Origin: Arenimonas sp.
Lineage (GTDB): Bacteria; Pseudomonadota; Gammaproteobacteria; Xanthomonadales; Xanthomonadaceae
Direction: 5' to 3'
Assembly: GCA_050737775.1 (NCBI GenBank)
Contig: JBOHYH010000171.1
Span: 8,300-72,299, forward strand
DNA: 64,000 nucleotides
Part shown: piece after piece, positions 1,377-29,248 of the stretch
How the letters are laid out: each line of letters begins with the position of its first letter
Numbering within the stretch: position 1 is the stretch's first letter
Translations under genes and position numbers: made by a program
Notes under the pieces: generated by a model
What the model was told of the DNA's origin: nothing
The model's input: only the letters and a program-made list of their open reading frames with translations
The model's database searches: none

Positions 1377-1379
1377 GGG

Positions 1380-4847: not shown

Positions 4848-4958
4848 CGTTTACCTCAGGTAGCCAGTTGAAGCGGGGTCTTCGAAAGAAGCTCAATTGC
4901 GCGCCGGTTATTTGGCCGATAGATATTTAGACCATTAAAAACAAACAGCTTTGATTAC

Positions 4959-5357: not shown

Positions 5358-8300
5358 CCTAAGCCTCCTTTAGCACAAGCGGAAGTTACGGAGCCTTGGG
5401 CACCGACAGCAATTGCAGCTTCACGCTGTGCTTGAGTCATCCCGGGCAAATTCAAATTTGTTGTAGTCCCTAGCGCTTGATTCAGAACTGATTCGATTCG
5501 ATTTGAATTAAATTCTGTCGAAAACCTTTCTTTTAAATCATTAGGAAAATAACTTGGGAAAAAGGACTCCTGTCTGTCGATCTCATGATTTACTTCATGT
5601 GATAAGACACTCGCGCCCAGTTCAGCTTCTAACTTTGACGACGATTTCCCTTTATTATGTGCACCTAAATCTTTCGCCCATTGTTTCACCTGTGCAATAT
5701 CAATAGTAATGTGTCCACCCGGCTTACTATCTGCCATACCGGTTTTCGGCGTTCCGGGATCGAACGTAATTCCATTCTTTGTCCACGGCTGTCCAATCAT
5801 TGCTGAAATTCTCGATAATCGGTTATAGCTTTGACTGCCCGGTTTCATTTTACTCAGACCCAGGTTAAGTGCGCTGACGTAAGAATCTACACTTCCGCAA
5901 TCCTGTGGCATACCACTGCACCAATACCTGCCGTCAGGGTCTGTGAATTTATACGGGTTGTCCGCCGCATACCAAAACCGATTGAAATTCGTCCCAGCAT
6001 TGAGATCAGTAGTGACCGGATCAGGTGATAAAAATCTACCGATCAGCGGATCATAATAGCGCTGTTGTGCATAAGTTAACCCCGTTAACGAGTCGGTGAC
6101 ATGCCCCGTATAGCCAGGCCCTTGGTCATACATTTGATCGCTTGGTTCGCCATAAGGCGTGTAACGTTCAATTCTGGTAATAGTGCCGGCTTGATCGGTG
6201 TACGCGACCGGGCTACCCAGCGAGTCGGTGTGTAAATAAGTATTAATGTAAGTAGTCGTTTGTGCGTTTGTACCCGTTAGAGCTGCACTGCGTTGTGCCA
6301 CTAGCCTTCCGTTCAAATAGACGAAATCGGTCTTTTTGTTACTTCGTGAATCATCTTCCGTAAGCAATTGTCCATTGAGATCGTAAACAGAATAATTGAT
6401 TTTGCCATCACTTAGACGTGTGGTTTTAACGCGCCTGCCATGCCCGTCGTAAATATAACTTTCTTTGCCGGTGACTTGTGTGACGCGATTCAGTGCGTCG
6501 TAAACCATCGGTTGGCGACCGCTTGTGGTATTACCGTTAGCGTCATAGCTAAATTGGTACACCGTGACCGGTTGTTCCGGAATTTGACAGCAAGGTGCTG
6601 CAACCGCCTGGGTCGTTACTGGTCCACTAGGATTGGCAGACCTTGACGATACAGGCGCGCTCGATCTGTTATTACTATTTGATGCTGTAGCGACTACAAC
6701 ACTTTGCTGCTGGCCTCCTCCGGGAGGGTCGTCTCCACCACCACCCGGCGGAGTACCACCGCCGCCTGGTGGTGTCGTGCCACCGCCACCTTCCGGACTG
6801 AGATCGCCAATATCGGTTGCCAATGCAAAGTTATCGCATGTGGGTAGTGAAGTGCTCGCCGTGGTCGTTGACTGGGGACCGGGCGATGTTCCAAATGGCT
6901 TCGTAATTTTTGAGAGACGGTTATTCGCATCGTAAACATACGAATGCACGCGATTACCCATCGTGTATCCGCGGATATTATCCAGCACGTCATAACTTGT
7001 ATTTGCATAGGCCCACCACTGACGAGGTGCGTTTGTATTCAACAAGCGATCCAGCCCATCGTATTGCATATCGCGATCACCACCATTGCCGCTTGCGTTA
7101 TCGCGAATACAACGGATATTGCTGTTTTCGTCAAAAGCGACACGCTCGTCTTGAAGTAACGCCGTTCCAAGGCTATCGCTACGCTCAGCCGATAGCCCAC
7201 GCAAATTCGGCAACTGGCGATGTACGGCAGTATTGCCATAGGTAAAACCCGTCATCGCACCATTGCTTCGATAGCTTACAGTCGTCGCGAAAGCTCCGGC
7301 CTGAGTTACTTGACCCAACGCATTCGGTGAATACGCTACTGCTAAATTACTCGGCAAGGTTAACTGATCCTCCACACCATCAGCGTTGTAGCGGTGGGCG
7401 ATAGTTTTAGTGCGACTATCTAACGTCAGAATTTCGGAGGTTGGGAGATTAAGTTTGTTATAGGCATAATTCCATACGACACCGCCGTTACTGAGAGTTT
7501 TCAGCAATCCGCCCGGCAAATAATCGTAGGCTAGATCGCTTGTACTGTTTGGCACATCCATCGTTTTAATTCGGTTGAGAGGATCGTAAGTCCGAATCAT
7601 TCTGGCCGATGCTGGCACAGCGTCGCGATCGCAAACATGGATATTAGCGACCGTTTGACCCGGCGCGGACCACAAGAGATTGCCTGCAGGGTCATAACTC
7701 ATCACCAATGTGCCCGTTTCCGGTTCTGTACGCTGACACAAACGGTGCTGCGCATCATAGACATAGTGACGACTGACGAAATCTCCACCACTCACAGCAC
7801 CCCGCGAGATTGAGAGGGGTTTGCCAAAAAGATCGCGAGTAAAGATAGTCAACGCATCTTCTGGCGATTCAATACTCACCGGCAAACTCGTATCAGGCGT
7901 ATCCCATGCCATAAAGCTGGTGGTTGTACTGAAAAGCTTGGGATTGGTAGTTTTAATCAGAAAGCCGGGCAAATATTCTTTGCTGGTAACAAGCACACCC
8001 AGCTCGGAATCTTGTTTGATTTGGGTAACGCGACCTAGATCATCATATTGCGTGCGAGTGCCTTGGGTAATTAAATCGCCTTTACCAGGATAAGAGGCAA
8101 ACACCACACGCCCCTCGCCATCGTAGGACGTTCTGGAGAATCGTTGCGTGCTGAGGATGTTGGCATTGTCGTACTCCCGTTTAACCACGGGACGCCACAT
8201 CGCATCGAAATATGTTTCAGACCGGGAATTGCCGACGCTGATCATCTGCTTCCACGCACCCGCAGGAAGGCCATACGCGGGGGTGGCAAGTTTGTCGAAA

Positions 8301-10702: not shown

Positions 10703-10853
10703 GAAAGATAAATTCCAGTTTCAAATGCAATCAATAAAGATGTGGGGTGAACGGCACAGATTTTGTGCGTTATTCTAGTAGTTGTTTGTGAAGACCGCCA
10801 TCTTGGGCGAATCACAGTTAACGGATTTGCTGCTCGGTGTGCCCAATAATTAA

Positions 10854-11057
10854 TCAATGCTTTCGCACTTGATCATCATCGGGCAAGGTTTGATCAAGGT
10901 CTACGGCAACGCCTTCAACAAGACTCTGAATCTCCTCAAAATAACTAATCTGCACTGGAGCAATCTTACCTTGAGCAATATCGCGATCCAGTAGGTCCAG
11001 GATTCTATTTATGGAAGCATCGCTTTCATCGACTTTTATCCTAGCCATAGCCGTCAA
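10854..11057 (-). CDS. Small hypothetical protein
   Basis: 67-aa ORF co-oriented and directly downstream of the XRE gene. Confidence 0.45.
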   Translation of the reverse strand: MTAMARIKVDESDASINRILDLLDRDIAQGKIAPVQISYFEEIQSLVEGVAVDLDQTLPDDDQVRKH

Positions 11058-11096
11058 ACTCGCCTGGTTTTCTCAGAAGTGCCAGATTACACCTTT

Positions 11097-11339
11097 CTAA
11101 GCTAATTTTTTCTCGTATTCACGGCAAAACGAAGCCAGTGATCGGCCGCACACATCGCAAATATCCTTAAGCTGCATGACATCAAGCCGAATTACACCTT
11201 GTTCAATCTTGCTAATCAACGATTGGGGACGTCCCAAGGCTTTGGATAGATCTACCTGGGTCAAGCCAGCCTTCAGTCGCATCTGCCTAAGCAGCACGAG
11301 AAGCACCTCGTATTCGTCCCGATGGATGGTTTTTGGCAT
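11097..11339 (-). CDS. XRE-family helix-turn-helix regulator (controller-protein-like)
   Basis: LRQMRLKAGLTQVDLSKALGRPQSLISKIEQG. Confidence 0.9.
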   Translation of the reverse strand: MPKTIHRDEYEVLLVLLRQMRLKAGLTQVDLSKALGRPQSLISKIEQGVIRLDVMQLKDICDVCGRSLASFCREYEKKLA

Positions 11340-11372
11340 GACCGCTCAAACAGATTAGGCGGTCATTACCCT

Positions 11373-11449
11373 ATATCCTATAACGGGATATACCATTTTG
11401 GAATATTTACGTACAGATGGGTAATCATTAATATTCTAAAATAGGATAT
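11373..11449. promoter_or_regulatory. Three 19-bp palindromic operators (ATATnCYA-N3-YRGRATAT)
   Basis: atatccta-taa-cgggatat 11373-11391; atatacca-ttt-tggaatat 11388-11406; atattcta-aaa-taggatat 11431-11449. Confidence 0.7.
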
Positions 11450-11506
11450 TATTAGATCGCCACTCTGCCTATTCATAGGCCAACTACCTTACTACGGGGT
11501 CCAAAA

Positions 11507-12094
11507 ATGAAAAGAACGCTACTTGCTCTCACCTTATTTGCCGGCCTTGCTGGCACCTCTGCCAATGCTTCTGAATTGAGCTATAGCTTTATTGAAGCCG
11601 ATTACGTAAATGCTGGAGATTTGGGGATTAATTTCAACGGTGATTTTGACGGCGTCAGTCTTCGTGGCAGCGTGGCCCTCGGCGACAACTTCTACCTTCA
11701 AGGCAATTACGCCAATACCAGCGCCACATCTGACTTTGGTGTCGGTTCTGATTTTGACACCTACAGTTTAGGCTTTGGCTTTCGTCACAATATCTCCGAT
11801 AAGGCCGATTTGTTTGCCGACGTAAACTACGTGCATTGGAGCTTCGATACTTTGGGCTCTATTGGTGCTGACGATAACGGCTATCGTGTACGCGTGGGTT
11901 TCCGTGGTGCATTGAGCGACAAATTTGAAGGCACCATTGGCGTTACCCATGAAGATTTGGGTGATGCGGGTGATGCTGTCTCCTTGTCGCTCGGTGGCCA
12001 GTTGAAATTCAACGACACCTGGGGCGCCGTAGCAGAAGTAGAAGCCGGTGGCGACGATACCCGCTATTTAGTCGGTATCCGCGCCAGCTTCTAA
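11507..12094 (+). CDS. Outer-membrane beta-barrel protein, Ax21/porin-like
   Basis: Signal peptide, SYSFIEADY start, alternating beta-strand pattern, C-terminal F (GIRASF). Confidence 0.85.
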   Translation: MKRTLLALTLFAGLAGTSANASELSYSFIEADYVNAGDLGINFNGDFDGVSLRGSVALGDNFYLQGNYANTSATSDFGVGSDFDTYSLGFGFRHNISDKADLFADVNYVHWSFDTLGSIGADDNGYRVRVGFRGALSDKFEGTIGVTHEDLGDAGDAVSLSLGGQLKFNDTWGAVAEVEAGGDDTRYLVGIRASF

Positions 12095-12107
12095 TTAAAT
12101 GCCCAAT

Positions 12108-12132
12108 GAGCGGTGTCTAGTCGACACCGCTC
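12108..12132 (+). terminator. Stem-loop downstream of the porin gene
   Basis: gagcggtgtc / gacaccgctc perfect 10-bp stem. Confidence 0.6.
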
Positions 12133-12349
12133 GTTTGACGAAGCCACTTTTTGATTACGCGAGCAACAGGAATTGCTATGCAGTTGACCAATAGATCGGT
12201 TTTTATTCAGACAAGTCCCGAAAAAGACTCGTCATTCCCCTAAAACTGAAGGGTCTCAGGTTTTGCGACATATGAGCCTAATAGTAACCAACAGGAAACT
12301 AGCCGCTCAGGGAAAGGACACGCCGAGCATTGTCCTAAGGAGGTCTTCC

Positions 12350-12712
12350 ATGTCTATTTGGCAAATGGCGTCGGTGGAGCATCAACCACGCGTCACGCTT
12401 GTTCGCAGGCGAGCACTTCGATTATCAGCCCATGAAAAGACTATCGATTTAGTCCTTGGCTGGTACCTGGAAGATCATCACGCCCGTATGAGCACACCGA
12501 TAAAGCACCACGATGTACAAGCTCGCACGTTGGTTACCAAGAGTGGCCGTGAGTATTCGGTAGCAGGTGATTCCGAATACTGTGATGACGCCGAGTACGT
12601 TCTGGAACAGCATTTTGGGCCAACAGCGAGTACGGCAATCGATGTCAGTGCCGAGTATATTGGCGGGCTGCTAAAGCAAGCTTCGGAGAACAATCATGCC
12701 CTCGATTATTAA
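12350..12712 (+). CDS. Conserved-looking hypothetical protein (MSIW...VTKSGREY type)
   Basis: Strong RBS aaggaggt before ATG 12350; overlaps the next ORF. Confidence 0.65.
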   Translation: MSIWQMASVEHQPRVTLVRRRALRLSAHEKTIDLVLGWYLEDHHARMSTPIKHHDVQARTLVTKSGREYSVAGDSEYCDDAEYVLEQHFGPTASTAIDVSAEYIGGLLKQASENNHALDY

Positions 12713-12980
12713 ATTCTCCCCTCGCGATGTTCAATTAGAAATCCAAGATATCTACGGCGATTTGCTGAACCACTTGCGTGATGGAAGCCATCCGAATGAA
12801 GACCAGATGGGAGCGTGGATGGACAAACTGACAAGGATCGCTGCCGTAACCGACAGTTTAATTATCGCCTGCGAAGATTGGATAGATCATGGCAGAGACC
12901 CCTATGATTTCGAGGCTGTGAAACGGGCGGTTGCTCATGCACATGGCCAGCAAGATTATTCACCACGAAAACATCGATAG
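12696..12980 (+). CDS. Hypothetical protein
   Basis: 94-aa ORF coupled to the previous gene. Confidence 0.55.
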   Translation: MPSIIKFSPRDVQLEIQDIYGDLLNHLRDGSHPNEDQMGAWMDKLTRIAAVTDSLIIACEDWIDHGRDPYDFEAVKRAVAHAHGQQDYSPRKHR

Positions 12981-13009
12981 TACTAAAATGTAACGTCAAT
13001 TAATCAGAG

Positions 13010-13297
13010 GTGCTGCTCATGGACAGACTTAGTCTGGCGATCTTTTTGGTTGACTTAGCCTGGACTGAATACGAACAATGCTGCGCTGACGTCTGGCGCG
13101 AATTTGAGCGTATTGATCCAGCTCTTGCAAGAGAAGTCGAACGACTAGGCCTTACAGAGGAAGGCACAGCGGAATGGGTTTGCCCCAGCCCTTATGAAGG
13201 ACAATCCTCACCCGCTGAATTGCTCGTAGAAGGAAAACGCGACAAGATATTACGCAAGATAGAAGGTGTATTGCATGCGCCAGACCTGACCTCATAG
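13010..13297 (+). CDS. Xre/MbcA/ParS toxin-binding-domain-like (DUF2384-like) protein
   Basis: AEWVCPSPYEGQSSPAELLVEG resembles the W...P...GG.SP.ELL..G pattern. Confidence 0.5.
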   Translation: MLLMDRLSLAIFLVDLAWTEYEQCCADVWREFERIDPALAREVERLGLTEEGTAEWVCPSPYEGQSSPAELLVEGKRDKILRKIEGVLHAPDLTS

Positions 13298-13306
13298 ATC
13301 ACGCTG

Positions 13307-13339
13307 TAACAACATTCTTCTGCTTGAAGAATGTTGTTA
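13307..13339. terminator. 14-bp perfect inverted repeat between convergent genes
   Basis: taacaacattcttc-tgctt-gaagaatgttgtta. Confidence 0.65.
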
Positions 13340-13428
13340 TTTCACTTGTTAGAATAGCGCCTTCGTGATGAATCTTATCCTGAGGCGTACTTGATTATGG
13401 TGCGAGTGTCGAGTGCCATCCCATCTGA

Positions 13429-14208
13429 TTAACCCCTAAGTGCTTTACGACGACGCTGCGAAATTCCGAATTGAGCAATCGCAACAGGGGTCTTATCAAC
13501 GGCGCGTTTCAAGACGTGATGTAATCGCTCTTGCATATCAATGTCTATCATGAGGATAAGCGCGACAACACCTGCGCCTAGTAATATCAGAATCCCAAAA
13601 TGTTTAGGCAAGTCGAAGCCTGTAGAATCGCTGAGCGCTTGAAACGCCACAAACACAGCACTAACAATAACGATAACTCCTGAACGTTCTTTTAATAGTT
13701 TTATCGATAATGCAATGCGATCTGCAAATTCACACAATACGTCTCGCGAGATTTCAGAGCCCATAATTTCAGTGAACAGCGCTTCTTCTTTTAGTCTGTG
13801 AGCGTCTACCATCAATGTTTGATACTCACCTTTGTTCGAAATCATGTGGTATGCCTCTCTGGCAACCACGAATACAAAGGCTGTAAAACAGAACCCCACG
13901 ACAATGAAAAAAACACCTGCCGCATTTTCGATTACACGATCAGACAGATAGCCAAGCTGCTTGCCAAAGGCAAGCACGATGAAAAGCAAAATATCCAGAG
14001 AAAATACGCAAGCTGTGATTAACAGAACTTTTTCAAAAAGCCCAGGCTTCTTTTTGTCCGGGGCTAGCCTCGCCATGAAGTTATTGGTAACGGGCACATC
14101 ATTTATCAGCAGTGGCAATTCTTTGGCGATGATGGAACTCTGAACTTTGTTGCCTGGCTGTCCTTTATCAAACATTCTTCTTACACTCCATCTACTTGGT
14201 TGGATCAT
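13429..14208 (-). CDS. Hypothetical membrane protein (about 4 TM segments)
   Basis: 259-aa ORF with two pairs of hydrophobic helices. Confidence 0.65.
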   Translation of the reverse strand: MIQPSRWSVRRMFDKGQPGNKVQSSIIAKELPLLINDVPVTNNFMARLAPDKKKPGLFEKVLLITACVFSLDILLFIVLAFGKQLGYLSDRVIENAAGVFFIVVGFCFTAFVFVVAREAYHMISNKGEYQTLMVDAHRLKEEALFTEIMGSEISRDVLCEFADRIALSIKLLKERSGVIVIVSAVFVAFQALSDSTGFDLPKHFGILILLGAGVVALILMIDIDMQERLHHVLKRAVDKTPVAIAQFGISQRRRKALRG

Positions 14209-14774
14209 AGTTTTTTGAATTATTAACTTAATTTGGTAGTAACTGTCTCAGCTTCCAGCGAATTAATATTCACGAAGTTTTATAAAAAAGACTTTCTTTG
14301 TCTTGGAAGGGTTTCATTGCGTGCACAAAAACAATACGAAACTTAGTATAGGTTTTCTATACGCTGAACATCCAAGTCCATACATTGAAAATACGATTTC
14401 CTTTATAGGCTGCTAATAAAGCCTTTCAGCTCTTCGTAGCCGTTTCAGATGGTAATAATTTCTCGATTTCAAAGCGTTGCTATTCGCAGAATCCATACGG
14501 GTTGCGCATTGTTTTTCCATCAAAGAACGACATCCATTTGAATTGAATATTTTTTAACGTATCGGCTGTTATTTAGGGTTCTCATAACTTTTCGTTATAA
14601 GTCATTTGCTAACTAAGTGCTATTTCGACCTCCTTAACTAGGGGGGTTTGCACATTTTGGCATTCGCTGTCGGTATAGCTTTTTGATCATTTACTTCAGA
14701 AAAAACACTTCTTGTTACCAGCGGTAATTTTGAGTCTGATAGTCAAGTCCAGTTGTTCCGGAAAAGAAAGCTAA

Positions 14775-15247: not shown

Positions 15248-17770
15248 ATGCTGAACGACAAGGAATTCAATACCTATATCCAAGAGCAGGAAGTCTCGGC
15301 ATCCGCTACTTCCTATATCGATACCACTAGAAAATCCAACCCTGCAAAAGCCGCTGGTGATGGGGCTTTATTGAATATGTCTTGCCGACTGGCGAGCCGA
15401 AAAATGGGCCACATCGTACAGGCCGCAAGTCGCACTGTGGAACTGCCCTATGCTATTCATTGCGAACTGCACCCTACCGTCTTTGAATTTTGGGACCAGC
15501 CCCGTCCGATACGTCTCATCCGTGTAAGGCTAAGCAAGAAAACCAACAAAGACATTCGCCATGTTGCTTCTTATACCGGGGATTACTTGACGCTTTACGG
15601 TAGCGGACCGGCAATCGTTGAATGTAAGTCTGCATCGGCGTATGAAAAACTAAAATCGAAACGTCCCAGCGACTGGAGTATTTCAGATTCGGAAATTGTC
15701 TATTTTCCGGCACTGGTAGCAGCACAGAATCTTGGCTTAGCTCATATCGTGGTAATGCCTGAGTCTCATTACGCAATTCGCGTAAATAACTACGAGCTCA
15801 TGTACGCGTGTCGGTATAGCCAGGCACCAAAAAATGAAGCTGCACTTCTCGAAGAAACGCGGGCTAGTTTGGCGGACGATCCGAAAACTATTGCACAACT
15901 TTGTGAGGAAGTAGATGGGCTGAATGACAGCTTGATCATTCATTGGCTTTCGCGCTTTGAGCTTCATTCATGTGTGAGATCTCAGCTGCTGATGGAGCGA
16001 CATTCCGCCTATATCTATCTAAATGCAGATGACGCAAAAACTAGAGACGATTTCCTGAAAGCGGAGCAAGACAGGAACAATGGCTTTATCGACTCATCAA
16101 AACTATCTATCGTCCTAACGTGTTCGGCATCTGCATTAAGGACCGGCGAAGCACATCAGAAAAAATATCAGGAATTCCTGGATGGGAAACGCAGTAAAAC
16201 CAGGCATGAACGCCGCTTTCCAGAAGAACTAATACGCGAATGCATAAATCGTTCTGGAAATCCTCTGCATCTTTTTATTCCTAACTACAAGTGCCGTGGG
16301 AATCGAAACGACAGGTATTCGCCTAAGCAGATCGAAATTTTTAACAAGGCTCTTAAGCAAATAATGGCGTCGCCCAGTCGTGCCACGCCAACACGTGTCC
16401 TTGCTCGAATGGACAGGCTATCGAAAGCAGACCCAAGAAGTATTGAGCAAGTTTCGCTTGAATCTGTACGTCTACGTCTGAAAAAGGAAGATCAGGAAAA
16501 AATCGCCCTGGCTCATGCTGGTCTTCGTGGATTCCATGGTGAACGACCGCCGATCGATCCCCTCTTCGGCACGTTGCGTACCTGGGTGCCGGGACTTGTT
16601 GTACACATCGATTCAACGCAGTGGGACCAGCGGCTTTGGAAGGAATCAGGCTTTGCGGACATCCTGCCTTGCCCTTGGTGGTATGGCGCCTTTGACGAAG
16701 GAAGCGGTCGCTGTGTAGGAGCATCATTAGCCTTCGGTAAATCTGACACATTCGCAATGTCTCTAGTGATGCGCGATATGGCTCGTCGTCTCGGTTTTTT
16801 ACCTGCCTTCATCGTCACAGATCGAGGCTCAGAATTTCAGTCAATTCTTTTCGAAACACTCAGTGCATTATGTAGCGTCAGCACCTTTCTGAGACCCGCC
16901 GGAGGCGCACGTTTCAGCTCTGAAGCTGAAAATGGTATGCGCCTGCCAAATGTGCAAATGGCGCAGCGTTTGTCCGGTAGTACATTCCTGGATAAAGCTG
17001 GCCGAAGTGCTGATGGCAAGAAGAAAGGTCGTTATAACGCTCGAATGACGTATCAACTGGCTAGGCAAGCATTGATCTGGTATCTCTTCGAATTCTTCAA
17101 TAAGAACAAGCACGGAACAGCTCCCGACACGCCCGATAATCTGTGGGACGAGGGCCGACTTTGCTATCCGATGGTCGGTTGCGAACTACTCGAGCCCCAA
17201 AACTGGGCTATTGCTTCAAGCGTGCCAGTGAAAGGCACCGTCGAGCGATTAAAAGGGATTCGTACCTACTACCGCACCTACAGTTCAAACGAGCTCTCTG
17301 AAGCACTCAAACGCAACGAGACCCCTAGTCGCAATCGCATCGACCCAGAAATACCGACTCTAATGTATTCAACAATTCATGGCCAAGTAATTAAGGCGCA
17401 TGACAGACAACACCTTCGCCTCAGTTCCCTGCCAACCGAGGCTCAAGTAGCCGAGCAGTTTTTGCATCGTCTGCGGGCAAAGGAAAACAGCAACGATCGA
17501 CGCGAGCAGCGTATGAAACTAGATACACGACTCGACCAAATGGAGGAGGTGGCCGATCTACTCCATGACACTAAAAAAGCCGCTACAGGTACTGATATTC
17601 CTAAGAACAGTAACACCAGCGTCGAACCTGAAGTGCATAAAACTAGTGGGGCAGACGCGTCCCCTGTAGTTCCGGAAAAGCAAAAAACGTCGCTATTCGA
17701 TCAAATTGCAAAGACTAAACCCCCAACCCAACTTAAGGATTTTGATGATGAAAAAAATTCCAGTGTTTGA
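15248..17770 (+). CDS. tnsAB: Fused TnsA endonuclease - TnsB DDE transposase
   Basis: N-terminal TnsA-like S..E.......E.....EFWDQP...YTGDYL...IVECK; C-terminal DDE triad VHIDST / IVTDRGSEF / SEAENG; a single ORF. Confidence 0.85.
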   Translation: MLNDKEFNTYIQEQEVSASATSYIDTTRKSNPAKAAGDGALLNMSCRLASRKMGHIVQAASRTVELPYAIHCELHPTVFEFWDQPRPIRLIRVRLSKKTNKDIRHVASYTGDYLTLYGSGPAIVECKSASAYEKLKSKRPSDWSISDSEIVYFPALVAAQNLGLAHIVVMPESHYAIRVNNYELMYACRYSQAPKNEAALLEETRASLADDPKTIAQLCEEVDGLNDSLIIHWLSRFELHSCVRSQLLMERHSAYIYLNADDAKTRDDFLKAEQDRNNGFIDSSKLSIVLTCSASALRTGEAHQKKYQEFLDGKRSKTRHERRFPEELIRECINRSGNPLHLFIPNYKCRGNRNDRYSPKQIEIFNKALKQIMASPSRATPTRVLARMDRLSKADPRSIEQVSLESVRLRLKKEDQEKIALAHAGLRGFHGERPPIDPLFGTLRTWVPGLVVHIDSTQWDQRLWKESGFADILPCPWWYGAFDEGSGRCVGASLAFGKSDTFAMSLVMRDMARRLGFLPAFIVTDRGSEFQSILFETLSALCSVSTFLRPAGGARFSSEAENGMRLPNVQMAQRLSGSTFLDKAGRSADGKKKGRYNARMTYQLARQALIWYLFEFFNKNKHGTAPDTPDNLWDEGRLCYPMVGCELLEPQNWAIASSVPVKGTVERLKGIRTYYRTYSSNELSEALKRNETPSRNRIDPEIPTLMYSTIHGQVIKAHDRQHLRLSSLPTEAQVAEQFLHRLRAKENSNDRREQRMKLDTRLDQMEEVADLLHDTKKAATGTDIPKNSNTSVEPEVHKTSGADASPVVPEKQKTSLFDQIAKTKPPTQLKDFDDEKNSSV

Positions 17771-20330: not shown

Positions 20331-21764
20331 TTATTGTCCACATGGCAACGCAGCTCTGTCTGTCTTAGGCCAACATACTTCAAGAAAGGTACACGCTTGG
20401 CAACACACTCGGCTATCTATTGGGGCTATTTGACATCTATCATCGCGTCTATCCAAGACCAATTGGTGAGCGCAATGATGGGCTTGTCCGTCGACAAAAA
20501 GTGCTCTCGGTTTGTGAATGGATCGCGTGCTTAACTGCGTGTTGCCGCTGGGGTAACCCGCTGCGTCACAGGCCCGCCATTGATGAAACCTACACGGGTC
20601 TACAACTGGCGTGGTTATAAGATAGTGCGTCGCTTGTCCAGTAATCAGCATCCAATGATCGGGGTTTACTTCATCGACTTCTATATAAAGAGGTTCGATT
20701 TGTTTTCGTGAAAATGCACTGGTTCGAGGTTTATAGCCTGGGCATGCCGCCAGAGGGGCGGGTTCTAGCACCACTCCGGTCTCAGTCGAACATTGATTCA
20801 GCAGATCAACTGCACGAATTCTCATTTCTTCCAAGTGATCCGCTAACTTTTTCGGAGAATCTTCTTGGTAGTCTACGATCAGGCAGTCGGTATGATGCAT
20901 TATAGTGAGGAGAACATTGTCATCCCTCAGTATGATAAGTGATGGATATACAAGGATGCGCGGACTAAGGACAAACTTCTTGCTACCAGAAGACTCATAC
21001 CGAACATGTACGCCGTGGAAGACGGCTTTAATCTTGTGAACCTGAATATGCTGTGGAAGCTGTGCTGGCCGCAGCAGCTTCGGAGGCCGGGAAGCTAGTG
21101 ATTCGTATCCAAGCAAATCCAATATTTCTGTCGAGCGCTCAACAAATTGTGATCGATGAAAAATTGCGATTTGTTCGTCGTTAGCAGTATCGTTCTCAGA
21201 AAACGTTTCACTAGGATTATGGAAAACAACTAGCCACTGTCCGCTTGTGAGTACCGCTCGCTGAATGTCATGATTGTGATTCGTTTTAAGTGCGCGTACA
21301 TACCTCATAACTTGACCAAGAAAGCCGTGCCACGTTGCAAAAGTGGGAGAGTCAACTTCCGCGCCCTTGTTCTTGATGTGGTTTATGGATCTGACTATTA
21401 AATTGGATTCCGTTTCGTTTTCGTTTTTGTTTCTTGAAGTAATGAAAGGCACGTCCCATGCTTTTGCTTCTACCATCAATATTGGATTTCGTTCTATCTC
21501 CGTAATTCCGATGTAGTCCATAAAATTCGTTGTGTCGACTTTAATTCTGGCTTCCTGAGCAACAGTACCAGAACTACCGAAGGTCCAACCCAACGCTTTC
21601 AATACCCCATCAATGAAAAACTCACGAGTCGTGAACTCTAGAATATTTGGTGTTCCTGCACCTGAGTAAGCCTCCAACGGATCAGTACCTGTCACTTTTT
21701 CAATGTCGCCAAGAAGTCGTTCCATCTCCTTCTTGAACGTGTTCGAGGCGTCTAGGCTATTCAC
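20331..21764 (-). CDS. HsdR_N-like restriction endonuclease domain protein with Cys-rich C-terminus
   Basis: TTREFFIDGVLKALGW...QE...DY...PILMVEAK; C-terminal CRFHQWRAC, HHCAH and CCQACTFLEVC; ATGA overlap with the upstream STAND gene. Confidence 0.75.
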   Translation of the reverse strand: MNSLDASNTFKKEMERLLGDIEKVTGTDPLEAYSGAGTPNILEFTTREFFIDGVLKALGWTFGSSGTVAQEARIKVDTTNFMDYIGITEIERNPILMVEAKAWDVPFITSRNKNENETESNLIVRSINHIKNKGAEVDSPTFATWHGFLGQVMRYVRALKTNHNHDIQRAVLTSGQWLVVFHNPSETFSENDTANDEQIAIFHRSQFVERSTEILDLLGYESLASRPPKLLRPAQLPQHIQVHKIKAVFHGVHVRYESSGSKKFVLSPRILVYPSLIILRDDNVLLTIMHHTDCLIVDYQEDSPKKLADHLEEMRIRAVDLLNQCSTETGVVLEPAPLAACPGYKPRTSAFSRKQIEPLYIEVDEVNPDHWMLITGQATHYLITTPVVDPCRFHQWRACDAAGYPSGNTQLSTRSIHKPRALFVDGQAHHCAHQLVLDRRDDRCQIAPIDSRVCCQACTFLEVCWPKTDRAALPCGQ

Positions 21765-24700
21765 TGAAGTAAATCAGGAATGCGATAAAGTAAACGACGA
21801 GCGGAAGACCAACCTGCATTCATGAGAATTTCAAGCGAAGCAACCAGTAATTCACGGCGCTTACTTTCTTCAAATATATCTTTGTGATCTGCCAAAAATA
21901 CGCCGAAAATCTTGACGATTAAGTCTGCTCCCATAGATTCGTACTGGTAGCCACCCCGCTTTCCGCCTTTCAGAAGTGCACCTGCCGCTAGATCAAAAGT
22001 CTTTCCTGGATTGCATTTAATAAGTTGTTCCAAAAGCTGCAGCAGATAGTAAATCGTGTGAGGAGAGCCATATTCTGTTATTGCATCTATTAGCTCATGC
22101 ACTTCATTGAAGTATTGCTGGAGATCGTCCCTCTGCAGTTTGGCGTTCTCATCGTCTTGCTGTCTAGAGATACCTGCCGCAAAATATAGCTCGCGACAGG
22201 CTATGTCGATAACCTCTACACATTGCTTAGCTTGAGAAACGTTTTCGGCGGTAGGATTGGTGGTGTCATAAAATTCAGCCAATTGCTTATTTGCGCTCTG
22301 GATGCAGTCTAAATAGATTTTCTGAGCCCGCTGACGTATAGGAAGATCGCCAGGGTCTCCCTGTTTTAGTCCAAAAACTAGTGCCCCTCGAAGTGTCGTT
22401 AAAACACTTCGCACTGGGTCGAAGTTATTTTCCGCGTTTGATATCCAAGCGTTGATTCTCGCATGCGCTTTCGGAAGTTCGTGCGTGACCCACAATATCG
22501 AAAGCAAGCTCGCTACATTTGCTGATAAACGTCGTGTCGCGTCTTCGTTATTTTCAAATCGATCAAGCAGGTTCAAAAGCAGAAGCTCGATCCGTGCACG
22601 TTCTGTATGTAAATACTTGGAAATGACGGCAGAGATTAGGAGAACGAGTACGGCAATACTGGTTTCGGTAGCTAGGCGTCTCTCAATCCGAGTCCACATG
22701 CCGAATCGATCAATGTGCCATAACCTAACCAGCCTATGACATGCTTGCATGCGTACCGCCGGATGACGGTCCGCCAATGACTTATCAATCAATGGAGCTA
22801 AAGCAGCATACAAATCGGGGCGCTGAAACAGCAATTCCAGCGCGGCGGTTGCCGCTTCCACTCGTGCCGCGGGACTTCCCCAGCTCGGCGATTCTTCAAA
22901 CGAGACATCGGTCATGGAATCAACGTACGGATTTTGTGAATTTGACGCAATTTGAATGAAGTGAACCAACTCTGTCACAGCAGTTTCTGAGGTCTCCGCG
23001 GACAACAGCTTCGCCTCTAGTATTTTTTGTATACCCTCTCCGAGTATTCCCTCCGCATAACCGCGTAACTTTTCATGAACATTCTTCGTAGCATCCAATC
23101 GACTAACGAGATTTCTAAGAACCCGAAGAGCTTCGTCTAGTGTGAATGAAACTTGCGACTCATCGGCTTTTCTAAGATTCAATTTTTTAGTTAATGATTC
23201 AATCTTTTCAATGATTATCGCGTTTTCAGGAGCCTCATGGTCGAGGCCATCGATCCAAAAATACGGCGGGGTTGCGTGTGCGCTTGTTTTCACAACATGT
23301 AGTCGCTCGTTTTCTACCTCTTCGTCGACTTGTGTCTCCAAGAATTGTTGGGCACCCTTCGTCAAAAGGTAGCCTTTTCCAATTGCACTGAAAAGCCGGA
23401 TGAGTAGGTACCGTTTTGCATCCTCTGCGTGAACGAAACGCGAAAGATCAAACTCAAAGACTGCCTTCTCAAATTGCTGACGCTCAGATTCAGATCTGCG
23501 CACAATCCCGCAAACTAACAAATCTATTGCATCTTTTCGAGTATCAGGCGAGACGAGAAATGCCTCACTAGCCGCGTAAGGCCATAAAAAGTCGGTTAGT
23601 TCATCATTTCGCTTAGCACCCACCATAAAAAGGCGCGACCAGTAAACTGCCAGCGTCGCATTGCTTATCAGATAATCTGCCAATATGATCGCATGCGATT
23701 CAGGTACTGCTTTTAGATGGGACACGAACTTTGTTATGAGTACTTCGGCATCCTGGCCGTGATCGTCGTCAGGATTGTGCGCCCAGATATAACTCAAGTC
23801 CTCTTGCATCTTAGCAACGCGCCCGTTGACGTCGACTTGGTGGAGCTCGTGGGTCGACTCAAGATGGTGTGCACGATCGACATAGGCATTAACGGACCAC
23901 AGAAATGCCTTAGTTGCTACAAGCGGATCGGACTCTAAAAACTTAGGGAAATGTTCGCTTAATGAATAGCGCGCCATTTCGTAATCCTGGCGCGCATTAG
24001 ATCTAAGGGGCAATATCTGGCTCGCGCCTAAGAGCGTCTCACGGTCTTCAGTAATTTTCTTAGTATAAATTTCCCGATAAACAATGGCAGCAAATTCTGG
24101 ATCTACTTCAGATAAGGCTGCTATTTTTCTTGCGATTGCCGGGGCCTCTTCAAAACCCCAAGTTTTGAAGCGATTATGATCAAATACGCGGCCGAGCAAC
24201 ATTCGTGATTGATCTGGATCGGTTTCATATGTACTGATTACAAATTCAATGGCTGCTGTGCTTAGCATCACCGGGTTTTGAACCGTAAAAGCATGCTGCA
24301 GTAGTGCTCGTGCCGTTTCACCCATTTCTGAGTGCTGTACCGTTTCCTTGGCTCGGTCTATTAGGAGAAATCCTAAGGAACGAATGGTCCATGCATTAAG
24401 TACAACTCCGGGAGTAACCAATGCTGCTAGATGTGACCATGGTGAAAGTGGAAAATCACCTTCATCTTCAATCCGAACCGCAAGCGCACCTATTACTTGA
24501 GAAAAAGCGATTCTCTCGGCTTCACCACCGGCCAAAATAATTTCAGCTAGCGACTCTGTGTCAATTCGCTGCTCGGGAAGTTCCACTGAAATCCTACTGG
24601 TCGCACTGCGAATGACTGGGTCACCAGCCTGGTCTCCGAGTATTTCCACAACTCGTTTCCAAAATCGGAAGTGATTTGTCTCGCTTGCCCATAACTCTTT

Positions 24701-26626
24701 CAAAATGAAGGAGAACGCGGGAGCCAGCATTAGACCCAATGTTTTACTACCCTCAGCAGTTGCGTTTTGTTGGATGTGATTGTCCGAATCGAAATATACG
24801 CGGCTCGCAGCATAGTCAAAAAGTATATGGTGGCGAAATTGCACCCACCTATCAGCGTCCACGGAAATTAGAACCCCTTCTCGGTGCAATACTTCTAAAG
24901 TTTCCGGATCGCTATCAATCGCTGATGCACGCGATACTCGTAGTGAGTGTGAATTCACCATGGATTGGACTAGGCGGTGTAAGCATTTTTCAGCTGCAAA
25001 ACCGTGTCTCTCGATGCGCAGTTCCCAATAAAGGCTGAGCAGCTGCGTCTGAGTGGAAACATGAAGAACATTCGCAGTCGACACGCCGCTCGAAACTATT
25101 TCACCTAGCAAACGCGTGTTAAACGGCACCCTTGCCAAATCGTGAAGTCGACCTGGATTTCCTGTCAACAGTGCATTCAGTGGACTGTTGTTTGCAAGCA
25201 ACCTCTCTAGCTCTGTTTCTGACCAAGGCGGAATGCAAATGTGACGGATATTTGAAAGAGCTGGTTCAGCAAATTTTGACGATAAAGGCTGACCTTTAAA
25301 AAGCGATCGCAGCTGCTGCCCCATTCGCAAATCGAACGTACGGATGGACGCTACTACCTTCCAGCGCCCATTCTTTCGCATGACGCTCTCGATTAGTGCG
25401 CGATATACTGCTTCGCCTTTTCCACCTCGGGTGGCATCTAAGGCATCAATAATTAACCATGCCGGCTGAGATCCATCCCATGCATCAATGACATCTAGTA
25501 AAGGGTGGGCAAGATCTAGTTCCCTTGTAAGACCTTCCAGTGATTCAATCGAGTAGCTATCTACTGCAAGTTCAAGCACATCGAAACCTTGATATTTAAG
25601 GCTTGATGCCAAAGCGTTTAATACGCCGCTCTTTCCGGCACCGGGCTCGCCAACAATCAAGAAGGAACCATTTTGAGCAGCTGCCTCAACAATATCTTGG
25701 CACTCTCTCCTGATTGCGATTTGTTCAGTTGGACCAACGCTTATGATTTCGTACTGGTGTAGAGCTTTACCTACCCGCGTTGAGTGATCCCTCAGCTTTG
25801 CAATGTCAGCTCTGTAAGGCGGAGAGTATTCCAGTTTTGCACCTGATTTTATGATGGCTTCGCGAAGATCAGATGAACTTGCTCCTCCTCGGCGAGCCAT
25901 AAATTCCCCACAAATATGGCCCAACATCAACCTCGCCGCGCTTGCGCTTTCGGCATTTGGTAACACAGATTGCAATGTGTTTTGTAAAAGTGAATCGTCA
26001 GGATCGAACGTATATATAACAACCAAATGAGAAAGCTCAGCCAGGACCTGTTCTATGAATGGTTCGCTAGTTAGTGTTGGCCAAACTTCACGCACGCAAT
26101 ATTCGAAATCATTCAGGGCTTTGCGCTGCACATCGGACATTAGCGATTCGCCAGGCTCCCGTCGCTTTCTCAGTGCAGCTGGAAGGTCAACACGAATTTT
26201 AGCGGATGCTTGTGGACCAACGGCGAGTACCAAGCGATCTGTCGTCAGATCCAACGGTCTATTCCAATCGAGTTTCCCGTCGCCATCACGACACACCAGC
26301 CAATGGCGGACAAACTGTTCGACCGTCTTCCCAAACTGACTCTGTAAGTTGCGTGACAACGAGAGCGATGTCTTTGCCTGCACTGCAACAAAGCCACTGT
26401 CTGACGTTCCGATTAAAATGTCGTCAACCGGGGCTTCTGTTTCAAAGCGAAACCATAGAGGTTGAGCCGTGCCCAAATTTAGACGCTGATCAAGGGAGTT
26501 GCCTGCGAGCATCCATCCACCAATTAGAGCTCCTAGCTTTTGTTGAAAGAGGATTCCGGCTGCTGTCGCTGAACCGCCGCTATTTGCAAGCAATCCATCG
26601 TTGTCGTTTGTCGATGAGGTTGTCAA
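21761..26626 (-). CDS. Nuclease-STAND NTPase-helical repeat protein (AVAST/Avs-like)
   Basis: N-terminal GILFQQ...ETEAPVDDI...VQAK (Cap4/Mrr-like nuclease); Walker A GEPGAGKS; Walker B WLIIDALD; about 1000 aa of helical repeats. Confidence 0.8.
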   Translation of the reverse strand: MTTSSTNDNDGLLANSGGSATAAGILFQQKLGALIGGWMLAGNSLDQRLNLGTAQPLWFRFETEAPVDDILIGTSDSGFVAVQAKTSLSLSRNLQSQFGKTVEQFVRHWLVCRDGDGKLDWNRPLDLTTDRLVLAVGPQASAKIRVDLPAALRKRREPGESLMSDVQRKALNDFEYCVREVWPTLTSEPFIEQVLAELSHLVVIYTFDPDDSLLQNTLQSVLPNAESASAARLMLGHICGEFMARRGGASSSDLREAIIKSGAKLEYSPPYRADIAKLRDHSTRVGKALHQYEIISVGPTEQIAIRRECQDIVEAAAQNGSFLIVGEPGAGKSGVLNALASSLKYQGFDVLELAVDSYSIESLEGLTRELDLAHPLLDVIDAWDGSQPAWLIIDALDATRGGKGEAVYRALIESVMRKNGRWKVVASIRTFDLRMGQQLRSLFKGQPLSSKFAEPALSNIRHICIPPWSETELERLLANNSPLNALLTGNPGRLHDLARVPFNTRLLGEIVSSGVSTANVLHVSTQTQLLSLYWELRIERHGFAAEKCLHRLVQSMVNSHSLRVSRASAIDSDPETLEVLHREGVLISVDADRWVQFRHHILFDYAASRVYFDSDNHIQQNATAEGSKTLGLMLAPAFSFILKELWASETNHFRFWKRVVEILGDQAGDPVIRSATSRISVELPEQRIDTESLAEIILAGGEAERIAFSQVIGALAVRIEDEGDFPLSPWSHLAALVTPGVVLNAWTIRSLGFLLIDRAKETVQHSEMGETARALLQHAFTVQNPVMLSTAAIEFVISTYETDPDQSRMLLGRVFDHNRFKTWGFEEAPAIARKIAALSEVDPEFAAIVYREIYTKKITEDRETLLGASQILPLRSNARQDYEMARYSLSEHFPKFLESDPLVATKAFLWSVNAYVDRAHHLESTHELHQVDVNGRVAKMQEDLSYIWAHNPDDDHGQDAEVLITKFVSHLKAVPESHAIILADYLISNATLAVYWSRLFMVGAKRNDELTDFLWPYAASEAFLVSPDTRKDAIDLLVCGIVRRSESERQQFEKAVFEFDLSRFVHAEDAKRYLLIRLFSAIGKGYLLTKGAQQFLETQVDEEVENERLHVVKTSAHATPPYFWIDGLDHEAPENAIIIEKIESLTKKLNLRKADESQVSFTLDEALRVLRNLVSRLDATKNVHEKLRGYAEGILGEGIQKILEAKLLSAETSETAVTELVHFIQIASNSQNPYVDSMTDVSFEESPSWGSPAARVEAATAALELLFQRPDLYAALAPLIDKSLADRHPAVRMQACHRLVRLWHIDRFGMWTRIERRLATETSIAVLVLLISAVISKYLHTERARIELLLLNLLDRFENNEDATRRLSANVASLLSILWVTHELPKAHARINAWISNAENNFDPVRSVLTTLRGALVFGLKQGDPGDLPIRQRAQKIYLDCIQSANKQLAEFYDTTNPTAENVSQAKQCVEVIDIACRELYFAAGISRQQDDENAKLQRDDLQQYFNEVHELIDAITEYGSPHTIYYLLQLLEQLIKCNPGKTFDLAAGALLKGGKRGGYQYESMGADLIVKIFGVFLADHKDIFEESKRRELLVASLEILMNAGWSSARRLLYRIPDLLQ

Positions 26627-26725
26627 AAGGCGTCACACCCTATTGGCTGATATTTGGAAATACGGGTTATCGTAAGCGTATCACCATCCTGTTCAGCTTT
26701 GAGAGTAGAAATTGTGTTCGATGCC

Positions 26726-27766
26726 TCATACCTCAGCCTTGCTTTGGTTGGCGTGCCAATTCTTCCATTGGCTTCTCTCCTTAAGTACTTGATCAGCATT
26801 TACTATGCGGGGTCGCAGCATCGGAACTTCAATTGACGGAGCCGCTGAGAAAATCATCCGATGAGCATGCTCGGCAATGATTTGGCGAAATTTGTACGCG
26901 AGCTGCCATGACACCACGGCACTTCGGTGAGCGGGTCGATTACCTACCTTCGTATACAAGAGACATCTCGGCCCCAAAGGAAGCATTATTTCAGTTCCAG
27001 GATTTGCCCAGCCTCCGTTGAAGTCGTAGTCGCCATCGCGATAATAATTGAGGCGAATAACCGGATCGTCGCTTGTGAACCAAGTAGTGTCATCGGGCGG
27101 CGTCAGCAGCATCCACCTATTCAAATTGAGCGTTTCAAGAGTCTTGGTAAGTAGATGTTTAATGGAAAACAGCCACATAACTCTTCCAATTGTTGTTTCT
27201 ACCTTGACCACTCCTTCGTCATTGTCTGCGTTTTTCGTAATGCTAACGCGCATAGGGACATGATCCTTCCAACATGGCTCCGCCATTGGACGTGATCTTT
27301 CCGCGTTACTTGCTGACTCTAGATTACGCAATGAATTTCTCAGCGTGGCATCCACGAGTGCGGGAACTGTTTCATTCCACCTCTTAAGATTTTCCATGAG
27401 ACGCGCTGGTGTCCGCACATCTTGCGAAGCAACAAATCGAATTAGATGTCTCCAATCTGTCTTGCTTAACCGCGCACCGGTATTTGCATTGTGAATCGCC
27501 TCGGTCGCTGGCGACTCGAACTCTTGATCAAGCCATCTTTCGATTTGGTCTGTTTCTTCTCCCGCGACAACATGTGTATAGAGATGTTCGTGATATGCGA
27601 TGCCTTGCAGGGAGGATTGTTTCCAGACAGGGACACGGGAATCTGACACTAACGTGCGGTAAGTTGATATATGCCCGTTCGTAGCCCATTGCTTCAAATA
27701 CATACATGGAACGTAGTGATTTCTTCGATGAAGTTCCGACTGTCTCTCTGGAGTCTGTACTTCCAT
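26726..27766 (-). CDS. DUF4238 domain protein
   Basis: RRNHYVPCMYLKQW N-terminus and WFTSDDPV motif; RBS gagga before ATG 27766. Confidence 0.85.
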   Translation of the reverse strand: MEVQTPERQSELHRRNHYVPCMYLKQWATNGHISTYRTLVSDSRVPVWKQSSLQGIAYHEHLYTHVVAGEETDQIERWLDQEFESPATEAIHNANTGARLSKTDWRHLIRFVASQDVRTPARLMENLKRWNETVPALVDATLRNSLRNLESASNAERSRPMAEPCWKDHVPMRVSITKNADNDEGVVKVETTIGRVMWLFSIKHLLTKTLETLNLNRWMLLTPPDDTTWFTSDDPVIRLNYYRDGDYDFNGGWANPGTEIMLPLGPRCLLYTKVGNRPAHRSAVVSWQLAYKFRQIIAEHAHRMIFSAAPSIEVPMLRPRIVNADQVLKERSQWKNWHANQSKAEV

Positions 27767-27851
27767 GAATTCCTCTGGCAGATATGAAATTAGGTCTCTC
27801 CCAAACTGACAATGACTCATACGACTTATGCTATTACAACAGACAGAGTAT

Positions 27852-28814
27852 TCATTCAATCACTGTTCTATGTGTTGCTTCAGAAATTTCGTTTGTTGTG
27901 ATATTCCTCAAAGGGCCTGGACCGAAACAGTCTGCTATTTGCATGAAGGTACTGTTTTCGTCCATGTCATCGCCATGCAAAGATATCGCTTGCCACACTG
28001 TGCATCGCCTTACACTTGATGCTTCAACGACCGTTCCTACGGATATGTATCGAATCATGATACCGAGAGTGGCGGGCGAGGCCAGCATTTCAATCCATTG
28101 AGGCCTGAAGTATCTTGCGATGTAAGCTGTCAGATGGCTTTCCGCTGTTTCCTCCAGCTCATCTTCGGTTGTTGAATTGATCGGACCTTGAGCAAATCGG
28201 ATGGGTTTTGTTAGATCAATTACTATCACGCCTGGAGGTCCTCCGAATTCATATTGCTGCCCGTCCAATTGTGTTCTCGCTTTTCGCAATCGTTGCTCCA
28301 AACGATTCAATGACGATAGTCTTTTACACTCGGCTGGCCAGCGTTCACGTCCGACAGTGATGTCTCCTCCATTCGGAGAGAAGCCTCCAAATTGATTTTT
28401 ACGGTGCAGTGCAGCAGCAGCTGAGAATTCAAAGGCATAGTCTCTTGCTCTGTCTGATCCTTCAACGCTCATAAACTCGCGGCCGTCGCTAACCTGTCGC
28501 AATTTTCGGAGTACTTCACCATCTTGAAACACGTTTGGATTTAAAGCTGCAATATCGGTGATGTCTACTGCTTCAATAATTGCGTTAAGGAATCCATTGT
28601 CTTGTTGATGTTCCGTCAATTCGCTTTGCTCAGCAATGATGGCGCGATCAAGTATTTCGGAATACCTAGCCAGCCGCGTGCCGTCGATTCTGACGCCCAT
28701 ATCCTGCAGTGCATCTAATGCCGTCAGATATTCTTGATACAACTGAGCAAGCGGCTGTAAATGCAAAGGCATCAGATCTGGCTCTCCGGTAAGCGTTCTA
28801 TCTATATATTCCAT
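27852..28814 (-). CDS. Hypothetical protein with PD-(D/E)xK nuclease-like motif
   Basis: DYAFEFSAAA...GGDITV...WPAECKRL. Confidence 0.6.
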   Translation of the reverse strand: MEYIDRTLTGEPDLMPLHLQPLAQLYQEYLTALDALQDMGVRIDGTRLARYSEILDRAIIAEQSELTEHQQDNGFLNAIIEAVDITDIAALNPNVFQDGEVLRKLRQVSDGREFMSVEGSDRARDYAFEFSAAAALHRKNQFGGFSPNGGDITVGRERWPAECKRLSSLNRLEQRLRKARTQLDGQQYEFGGPPGVIVIDLTKPIRFAQGPINSTTEDELEETAESHLTAYIARYFRPQWIEMLASPATLGIMIRYISVGTVVEASSVRRCTVWQAISLHGDDMDENSTFMQIADCFGPGPLRNITTNEISEATHRTVIE

Positions 28815-29080
28815 TAGGCCGCGTGTAATGCAATAAGCTCATTACGCAATGCTTGAAAAAATCGTTCTTGCCGAGAATGCCTCAGTTGAGGATGTCGACG
28901 GGAATACAATAATGCGCGCTCAATGGGCTTGTCGGTGACAGAGTTCAAAGGCACATTTTGAGGGGCTCATAAAATGCTGCAATTTTATGAAGCGCGCAGT
29001 AATTTCTGATTTGCCAAAAGTGCCTGCATGCTCGAAAGACAAGAAAATCAATAGCTTAAAGACTAAAGATTTTCACAACC

Positions 29081-29148
29081 ATGTTTTGTCCGAAGCATTA
29101 ACAATCAAAACATGTCCGAACGGACAGAAATTGCTTGGTTGTCCAAAG
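29081..29148. repeat. Periodic tgtccRaa repeats, candidate TnsB-binding sites / transposon end
   Basis: tgtccgaag at 29087, tgtccgaac at 29113, tgtccaaag at 29140 (26-27 bp period); palindrome tgtccg-aa-cggaca at 29113-29126. Confidence 0.45.
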
Positions 29149-29171
29149 CCAAAGGGCCTGTTCGCAAAAAG

Positions 29172-29248
29172 TGGCGCGCCCGACAGGAGTCGAACCTGTG
29201 ACCCTTGCCTTCGGAGGGCAATACTCTATCCAGCTGAGCTACGGGCGC
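29172..29248 (-). tRNA. tRNA-Arg(CCG)
   Basis: 77-nt cloverleaf GCGCCCGTAGCTCAGCTGGATAGAG-TA-TTGCC-CTCCGAA-GGCAA...GGTTCGACTCC...CCA. Confidence 0.97.

Follow-up and report, generated by a model that had tools for sequence, protein, structure and literature searches.

The question raised by this locus is whether a cluster of short repeats lying beside a tRNA-Arg(CCG) gene of an Arenimonas sp. genome (G000) is the end of a mobile element and, if so, where that element begins and ends. The DNA analyzed, hereafter the window, is a stretch of 64 kb corresponding to positions 8300–72299 of the 97.7 kb contig JBOHYH010000171.1 (C171). The G000 assembly is a MAG of 387 contigs, but both element junctions lie within a single contig and are syntenic with the congener G452. 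Because the tRNA-Arg(CCG) gene is on the minus strand (29172–29248), the repeats lie downstream of its 3' end. From the letters alone, it had been predicted that they form the tRNA-proximal end of a Tn7-like element, with three boxes as an array of putative transposase sites. Both proposals held, on the evidence of a tnsAB-tnsC-tnsD operon 9 kb away, a partner end in inverted orientation, an empty site in a congener, and an equal geometry in other genomes. It is very probable that a Tn7-like transposon of 31.2 kb, with genes for a TnsA-TnsB fusion, TnsC, and TnsD/TniQ, has its attachment-site-proximal end at positions 29075–29145. The features are listed in Table 1.

Table 1. Features of the element and its attachment site, in window coordinates
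Feature	Position	Strand	Evidence
Left-arm cargo, same insertion, extending 2,072 bp past the window start to the distal tip at C171:6227	1..14649	.	GC, distal end, G452 empty site
Internal end-like sequence: TGCACA, 12 nt, CTGTCGG, then degenerate boxes	14650..14720	+	Local alignment score 39 to right end
Small ORF upstream of tnsAB, 98 aa	14775..15071	+	Conserved with G368: 37.5% over 64 aa, 1.75e-8
TnsA-TnsB fusion transposase, 840 aa from called ATG (871 aa from longest ORF, start 15155)	15248..17770	+	Profile vs 9bw1_M
TnsC AAA+ regulator, 382 aa	17706..18854	+	PDB TnsC 8fcu_Q/9bw1 1.8e-24 over residues 27–381; Pfam AAA_22, TniB
TnsD/TniQ-family target selector, 446 aa	18851..20191	+	Pfam TniQ PF06527 1.1e-11, above cut-off
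Right-arm cargo	20331..28814	-	Pfam and PADLOC
PDC-M54B	20331..21764	-	PADLOC
PDC-M54A STAND NTPase	21761..26626	-	PADLOC
DUF4238	26726..27859	-	Pfam
320-aa protein without assigned function	27852..28814	-	
Third putative transposase-site box (29087 box)	29075..29095	-	Counterpart in left end 62 nt from that tip
Second putative transposase-site box (29113 box)	29101..29121	-	20-mer matches, register
Terminal site, att-proximal end: TGGACAAC, 11 nt, TGTC read inward; 3' CA tip at 29145	29123..29145	-	Inverted copy at contig 6227–6249
Host spacer, tRNA CCA to transposon tip, 26 bp; 29146–29149 AAGC is one target-duplication copy	29146..29171	.	AAGC at both tips
tRNA-Arg(CCG), putative TnsD recognition target (attachment site)	29172..29248	-	ARAGORN; Rfam tRNA 65.9 bits

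The repeats themselves are present as had been described. The boxes tgtccgaag, tgtccgaac, and tgtccaaag start at 29087, 29113, and 29140, with spacings of 26 and 27 bp, catgttttg (29080–29088) is repeated in inverted orientation as caaaacatg (29106–29114), and the palindrome tgtccg-aa-cggaca (29113–29126) terminates 45 bp from the tRNA. Over both strands of the 64 kb window TGTCCRAA is not over-represented (4 found vs 4.7 expected), and three of the four matches fall within 61 bp on one strand, a cluster with a chance of ~1.75e-5 under random placement (Monte Carlo). As a shared box, tgtccRaa held only for its core: the trailing aag of the third box (29146–29148) is host DNA, part of an AAGC duplication, so that what the sites have in common is TGTCC / GGACA.

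Aligned with an empty-site relative, the congener G452 has an uninterrupted site, in which the left-flank gene, a 40-nt hairpin, tRNA-Arg(CCG), and a TonB-receptor gene follow one another contiguously. When the flanks in G000 are joined minus one AAGC, they are colinear with G452, and the junction shows no gap in length. Neither G452 nor 13 other relatives have the repeats downstream of tRNA-Arg(CCG), an outcome that favors the original prediction. The flanks outside the tips are the two halves of the hairpin, and the spacer plus the left flank rebuild the hairpin of the empty site; the native hairpin just after the tRNA was split by the insertion (contig 6190–6226, window -2109 to -2073, and window 29146–29171). 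Farther left lies a further hairpin with a T-run, in tRNA-strand orientation, which was presumably the terminator of the tRNA; it is now 31 kb from the tRNA (contig 6190–6212), and as a result read-through from the tRNA now enters the transposon end.

The opposite end, located 2,072 bp before the window start, had been out of reach of the initial reading. Searches of the window by exact motif, k-mers, and blastn-short, and a comparison of 18-mers with the sequence preceding tnsAB, found no partner end. The 8.3 kb left of the window contain one: at contig 6227–6249 the plus strand reads TGGACAAC, 11 nt, and TGTC, the inverted counterpart of window 29145–29123, and a TTTTGGACA box is found 58 nt inside that tip. 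The pairing of the two ends rests on anchored and local alignments, in which the right end has its best non-self match in the whole 97.7 kb contig at the left end (score 46; background 18.4 ± 4.9). The 23-nt terminal pattern has six matches in the 3.4 Mb genome, two of which are the two borders, in inverted orientation. AAGC flanks both tips (contig 6223–6226 and window 29146–29149; GCTT in the tRNA sense), the distal end together with its AAGC occupying contig 6223–6305. The element therefore delimited, contig 6227–37444 or window -2072 to 29145, is 31,218 bp long, and its GC content is 0.47 vs ~0.53 outside, with borders that coincide with the drop in GC.

These limits revise the terminus that had been proposed, an ACA at 29126 with gaaat as the target duplication and with tips of the form TGT...ACA. 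Since the inverted repeat shared with the other end runs outward past 29126, extending to 29145, neither that tip nor that duplication can stand: conservation in eight genomes starts at TGGACAA, the flanks at 29126 read ATTAC and GAAAT, and the real flanking direct repeat is AAGC. The actual tips are TGG...CCA. The true proximal tip is 19 bp nearer the tRNA than had been thought, 26 bp from its CCA, and the box at 29140 is the terminal site, TGGACAAC when read inward.

Measured from this tip, the proximal end has GGACA cores at 1, 28, and 54 nt and an inverted TGTCC at 19 nt, while the distal end has GGACA cores at 1 and 62 nt and its inverted TGTCC likewise at 19 nt. The 20-mer of the second box matches the third box and the inner site of the left end at no more than six substitutions, with one further match in the element (element position 3614), and the site 20-mers are almost confined to the two ends. 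The register recurs elsewhere. Rhodanobacter-type ends have a box in the same register as the second box, and the ends of the type found in G368, a genome of another family in the same order, also keep the register, including a palindrome centered ~26 nt from the proximal tip. The ends are inverted and asymmetric, with several internal putative transposase sites, a layout shared by the G368-type ends. In the TnsAB clade, the att-proximal end has been reported to carry sites in both orientations (PMC9881144), which the palindromic layout of the G000- and G368-type ends fits.

The second box and the TGTCC of the terminal site together form the palindrome at 29113–29126, and the palindromes of the original prediction are by-products of oppositely oriented half-sites, not RNA structure. 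A reading of them as RNA structure was rejected, with a fold z-score of -0.13 and no Rfam family beyond the tRNA. The broader alternative is that the repeats have nothing to do with transposition and are either native host sequence, such as a tRNA terminator or hairpins with a regulatory role, or a chance cluster; in its favor, the palindrome 29113–29126 with its T-rich tail was flagged as terminator-like on the tRNA strand. We consider this alternative almost certainly wrong, as the sequence is absent from the G452 empty site, whose native hairpin is the one split in G000, the tRNA's own hairpin-plus-T-run is the one now found at the far border, terminator-like structures are no more numerous than in shuffles (1 vs 0.5), the fold score is the one just given, and the cluster would arise by chance with a probability of only ~2e-5.

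The machinery expected of a Tn7-like transposon is encoded by three overlapping plus-strand genes at 15.2–20.2 kb, for TnsAB, TnsC, and TnsD/TniQ. Compared with solved structures, their products match the corresponding proteins of the tRNA-targeting PmcCAST (9bw1, 8fcu, 8v32). The TnsAB protein alone gave no Pfam match, which counts against the transposon reading. When built with its two closest homologs, P0002 (47% identity) and P0003 (38%), a TnsAB profile aligned with the TnsA part (1.9e-24) as well as the TnsB part (9.7e-29) of PmcCAST TnsAB (9bw1_M), the N-terminal 260 residues being those that align with the TnsA part. The nuclease columns (D, E-x-K) and the DDE columns (D, D, E) are invariant in the TnsAB alignment. 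TnsAB homologs carry PF08722, PF00665, and PF09299, with PF08722 matched in one homolog. The protein comprises a TnsB-type DDE (RNase H-fold) transposase, its profile also matching the TnsB of Tn6677 (9y7b, 2.1e-5), and a predicted TnsA-type endonuclease fused to it. A search of genome contigs found no close relatives of TnsAB, and a metagenome scan gave only distant or partial matches.

The tnsC gene overlaps the tnsAB stop, which places a TnsC/TniB regulator next to the transposase. In comparisons against PDB, the product of the third gene matched TniQ 8fcu_P (7.9e-14) and TnsD 8v32_J/9bw1 (7e-12), and it is 33% identical to its G368 homolog. Only four ORF pairs are shared between the element and G368, together with one short antisense ORF pair inside tnsAB. 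The fourth of these conserved genes, the 98-aa ORF upstream of tnsAB, has no Pfam or NCBIfam match; it may be a fourth core gene of the lineage, possibly a DNA-binding regulator. The core operon occupies a mid-element position and points toward the tRNA, which is unlike Tn7 and also counts against the transposon reading, as do the TGG/CCA tips and a duplication of 4 bp, against 5 bp in characterized Tn7-like elements.

In an alternative delimitation, the repeats are the proximal end of a shorter transposon of 14.5 kb (14650–29145) whose distal end is the degenerate TGCACA...CTGTCGG sequence at 14650, the left 16.7 kb being what is left of an older element in tandem, of which just the distal end survived. 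The 14650 sequence has the right orientation and the same 12-nt internal spacing, it precedes the small ORF and tnsAB by ~100 bp, the place expected for a canonical Tn7-like end, and if insertions recur at one set distance from the tRNA, an identical outer duplication would be formed again. A relaxed end pattern has an expectation of 0.22 per element. Yet there is no AAGC beside it and no proximal-type end of an older element, its terminal GGACA cores are degenerate, and its score is only the third-best non-self match in the contig, marginally above background. G368, G665, and G271 likewise have an internal core operon flanked by cargo on either side, and in G368 no internal end or operator site was found upstream of it. 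We therefore regard the shorter transposon as unlikely. The 14650 sequence may represent a relic end, an alternative end, or an operator. In G368, a 13/16 match (L039:13640) was also considered as an end and was rejected, as it is inside an ORF and has no tip.

The rest of the 31.2 kb transposon is cargo. In the right arm, PADLOC identified the candidate defense pair PDC-M54A/B, with E values of 0 and 7e-174. The contents of the left arm, by Pfam, are an Mrr-like nuclease, peptidases, an Rhs toxin, an outer membrane protein (OMP), and others. Window positions 74–2007 and 5348–10702 hold the Mrr-like nuclease, a zincin-like peptidase, an S41 peptidase, and an Rhs protein of 1,784 aa. Among the ORFs scanned for domains, which covered only part of those under ~120 aa and of the longer cargo ORFs, there is one TniQ match and no Cas domain; a CAST would require a second TniQ and/or a CRISPR-Cas module. 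The element shows defense cargo (PDC-M54, DUF4238, Mrr, Rhs) reaching a tRNA hot spot without an integrase.

Such a location could also suggest a tyrosine-integrase genomic island inserted in the tRNA 3' end, with the repeats as att or arm-type sites. The tRNA-Arg(CCG) gene is indeed an island hot spot in the genus, as the sequence downstream of it differs in every relative, and the congeners G022 (C56) and G017 (C404) have partial copies of its 3' half tens of kilobases from the gene, which indicate that in other strains this tRNA serves islands of the integrase type. In G000, on the other hand, where tRNA-Arg(CCG) is a single-copy gene, no direct repeat of its 3' end of at least 14 nt was found in the genome, an integrase domain is absent from the ORFs scanned, and the element is bordered, 26 bp past an intact tRNA, by inverted repeats and a 4-bp duplication, with no duplicated tRNA segment. 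An integrase island has, in our estimation, hardly any chance of being the correct explanation.

The Tn7-like reading is strengthened by the recurrence of the insertion. In eight genomes the end lies 23–26 bp after tRNA-Arg(CCG), and it is always the same end that faces the tRNA, so that insertion is specific in both site and orientation. Related TGGACAA ends were found at tRNA-Arg(CCG) in seven other Rhodanobacteraceae genomes. The spacers (23–26 nt) are unrelated among the genomes, and conservation therefore starts at the tip: across the eight ends of this type it begins at the T of TGGACAA, which is the T of the tip at 29145, and runs for ~80 nt. We also scanned 185,579 species genomes for the pattern of a tRNA end, 15–35 nt, TGGACAA, 12 nt, and TGTC, and obtained 15 matches. 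Five were true ends, and all five were at tRNA-Arg(CCG): Rhodanobacter sp. FW104-R8, R. glycinis, an R. denitrificans MAG, R. terrae, and Dyella agri. Among those five genomes, the transposase and the distal end were found in R. terrae only; with the queries used, neither was detected in FW104-R8, R. glycinis, Dyella agri, or the R. denitrificans MAG (L092, L094, L095, L096). These four genomes appear to hold orphan proximal ends (~80 nt, well conserved), which may be relics still occupying the attachment site.

Homologous elements of 40.3 kb (G368) and 57.8 kb (G665), together with one split between contigs (G480), have the same orientation to tRNA-Arg(CCG), with TGTC, CACC, and CTCC as their flank repeats. 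The TnsAB, TnsC, TnsD, and small ORF of G368 are 33–38% identical to those of G000, and its element has a GC content of 0.58 in a background of 0.67. Its ends start with TGGACAAAT, and 23 bp separate the CCA of tRNA-Arg(CCG) from the end that faces it. The TnsAB proteins of G368 and G480 are 33–35% identical to that of G000, while the TnsAB of G665 was matched only to the G368 protein (69%). In every case seen, the core operon points toward the tRNA from an internal position, at 17–43 kb from the distal tip and 9–15 kb from the proximal one. Two genomes were added by a family-wide search: G665, at the tRNA, and G559, not at a tRNA. In G559 (G559:C13:7177, L134), 12.5 kb separate a proximal-type end from a 75%-identical TnsAB gene, and the end has no tRNA within 1.5 kb; it may be an off-site insertion or a rearrangement.

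In all four elements for which both ends are available, a perfect 4-bp direct repeat abuts symmetric TGGACAA / TTGTCCA tips. The repeats are AAGC in G000 and TGTC, CTCC, and CACC, in the tRNA sense, elsewhere. A 5-bp target duplication fits only two of the four elements and would strip the terminal A from one end, and of a TGT...ACA tip only the 3' CA is kept. A sister lineage, in G271 and G348, has a TnsAB ~25% identical and is inserted 23–28 bp after tRNA-Arg(CCG), with tips TGTGCG...CGCACA. The G271 element (G271:C1:3461399–3477597) is 16.2 kb long and has a perfect 5-bp duplication, GAAGC. In the sister lineage too, the tns operon is flanked by cargo on either side and points toward the tRNA. 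In G348 (C16:395454 and 267199), a distal-type end is found 128 kb away in the wrong orientation, a layout that suggests a rearrangement.

We are inclined to think, with some reservation, that the lineage of TnsAB elements with TGGACAA ends combines a 4-bp stagger, vs 5 bp in every characterized Tn7-family element and in the sister lineage, with a mid-element operon that faces the attachment site. With the operon in such a position, cargo would accumulate on both sides of it. If true, the geometry of the transpososome has shifted within one fused-TnsAB clade. Two lineages at the same site, differing in their tips and in the apparent duplication (4 vs 5 bp), are a natural pair for studying what sets the stagger and end recognition. 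In the literature searched, no paper was found to pair Tn7-like elements with tRNA-Arg targeting or with a 4-bp duplication, a negative that does not show that none exists.

By analogy with Tn7 and with the TnsABCD pathway of PmcCAST/McCAST, from which we infer the assignments of proteins to DNA and the order of assembly, TnsD would bind the tRNA-Arg(CCG) gene, which is the only sequence conserved beside all the insertions. TnsC would then assemble beside TnsD and recruit TnsAB, which would be bound to the GGACA-core sites of both ends. The 3' CA tips would be joined to the target 23–26 bp downstream of the tRNA CCA, with a 4-bp stagger, and the densely packed three-site end would face the tRNA, as Tn7R does.

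The mobile element is fully delimited, with both tips, the duplication, the empty site, and an attachment rule. It also extends the tRNA-targeting TnsAB clade, so far mainly cyanobacterial or known from CASTs, to the Rhodanobacter order, with a new fixed target. A small, Cas-free, protein-guided set of TnsABCD could become a tool for site-specific integration.

In kind the element is not new, as tRNA-homing elements with fused TnsAB and non-TGT tips are already known (PMC9881144, PMC10293859). Tn7-like elements with TnsAB fusions that target tRNAs include PmcCAST I-B2, McCAST and CyCAST I-D, and Cas-free relatives (PMC9881144, PMC10293859; PDB 9bw1, 8fcu). CyCAST inserts 30–33 nt downstream of the tRNA (PMC9881144, PMC10293859), and the tips of McCAST are TAC/GTA, showing that non-TGT tips are tolerated (PMC9881144). 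With TnsA and TnsB in one polypeptide, a tRNA site, and a long TnsD that would read the tRNA, the G000 element belongs to this clade; like the other members, it has TnsC, a strict orientation, and an insertion point tens of base pairs past the tRNA. What is new is the host group (the Rhodanobacter order), the tRNA-Arg(CCG) target, the TGG/CCA tips, the internal operon, and the consistent 4-bp duplication. Unlike the tRNA-targeting CASTs, its host belongs to Rhodanobacter's GTDB order and is not a cyanobacterium, its target is tRNA-Arg(CCG), not a Leu or Val tRNA, no CRISPR-Cas or second TniQ was found among the ORFs scanned, its TnsAB is too diverged for Pfam, its tips are TGG/CCA, its flank repeat is 4 bp vs the 5 bp reported, and its internal operon reads toward the tRNA.

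The resemblance to integrase-type tRNA islands is in the position just downstream of a tRNA, the low GC, and the defense or toxin cargo; unlike them, the element has no integrase among the ORFs scanned and no duplicated tRNA 3' segment, and it is bordered by inverted repeats with a short duplication. With Tn7, whose attTn7 is downstream of glmS, it shares a TnsD-type insertion ~25 bp past a conserved gene, asymmetric multi-site ends with the packed array facing the attachment site, and defense or resistance cargo. Tn7, however, has separate TnsA and TnsB, a TnsE, TGT/ACA tips, and a 5-bp duplication, and its tns genes lie against the att-proximal end and point away from it, whereas the operon of the G000 element is internal and points toward the tRNA.
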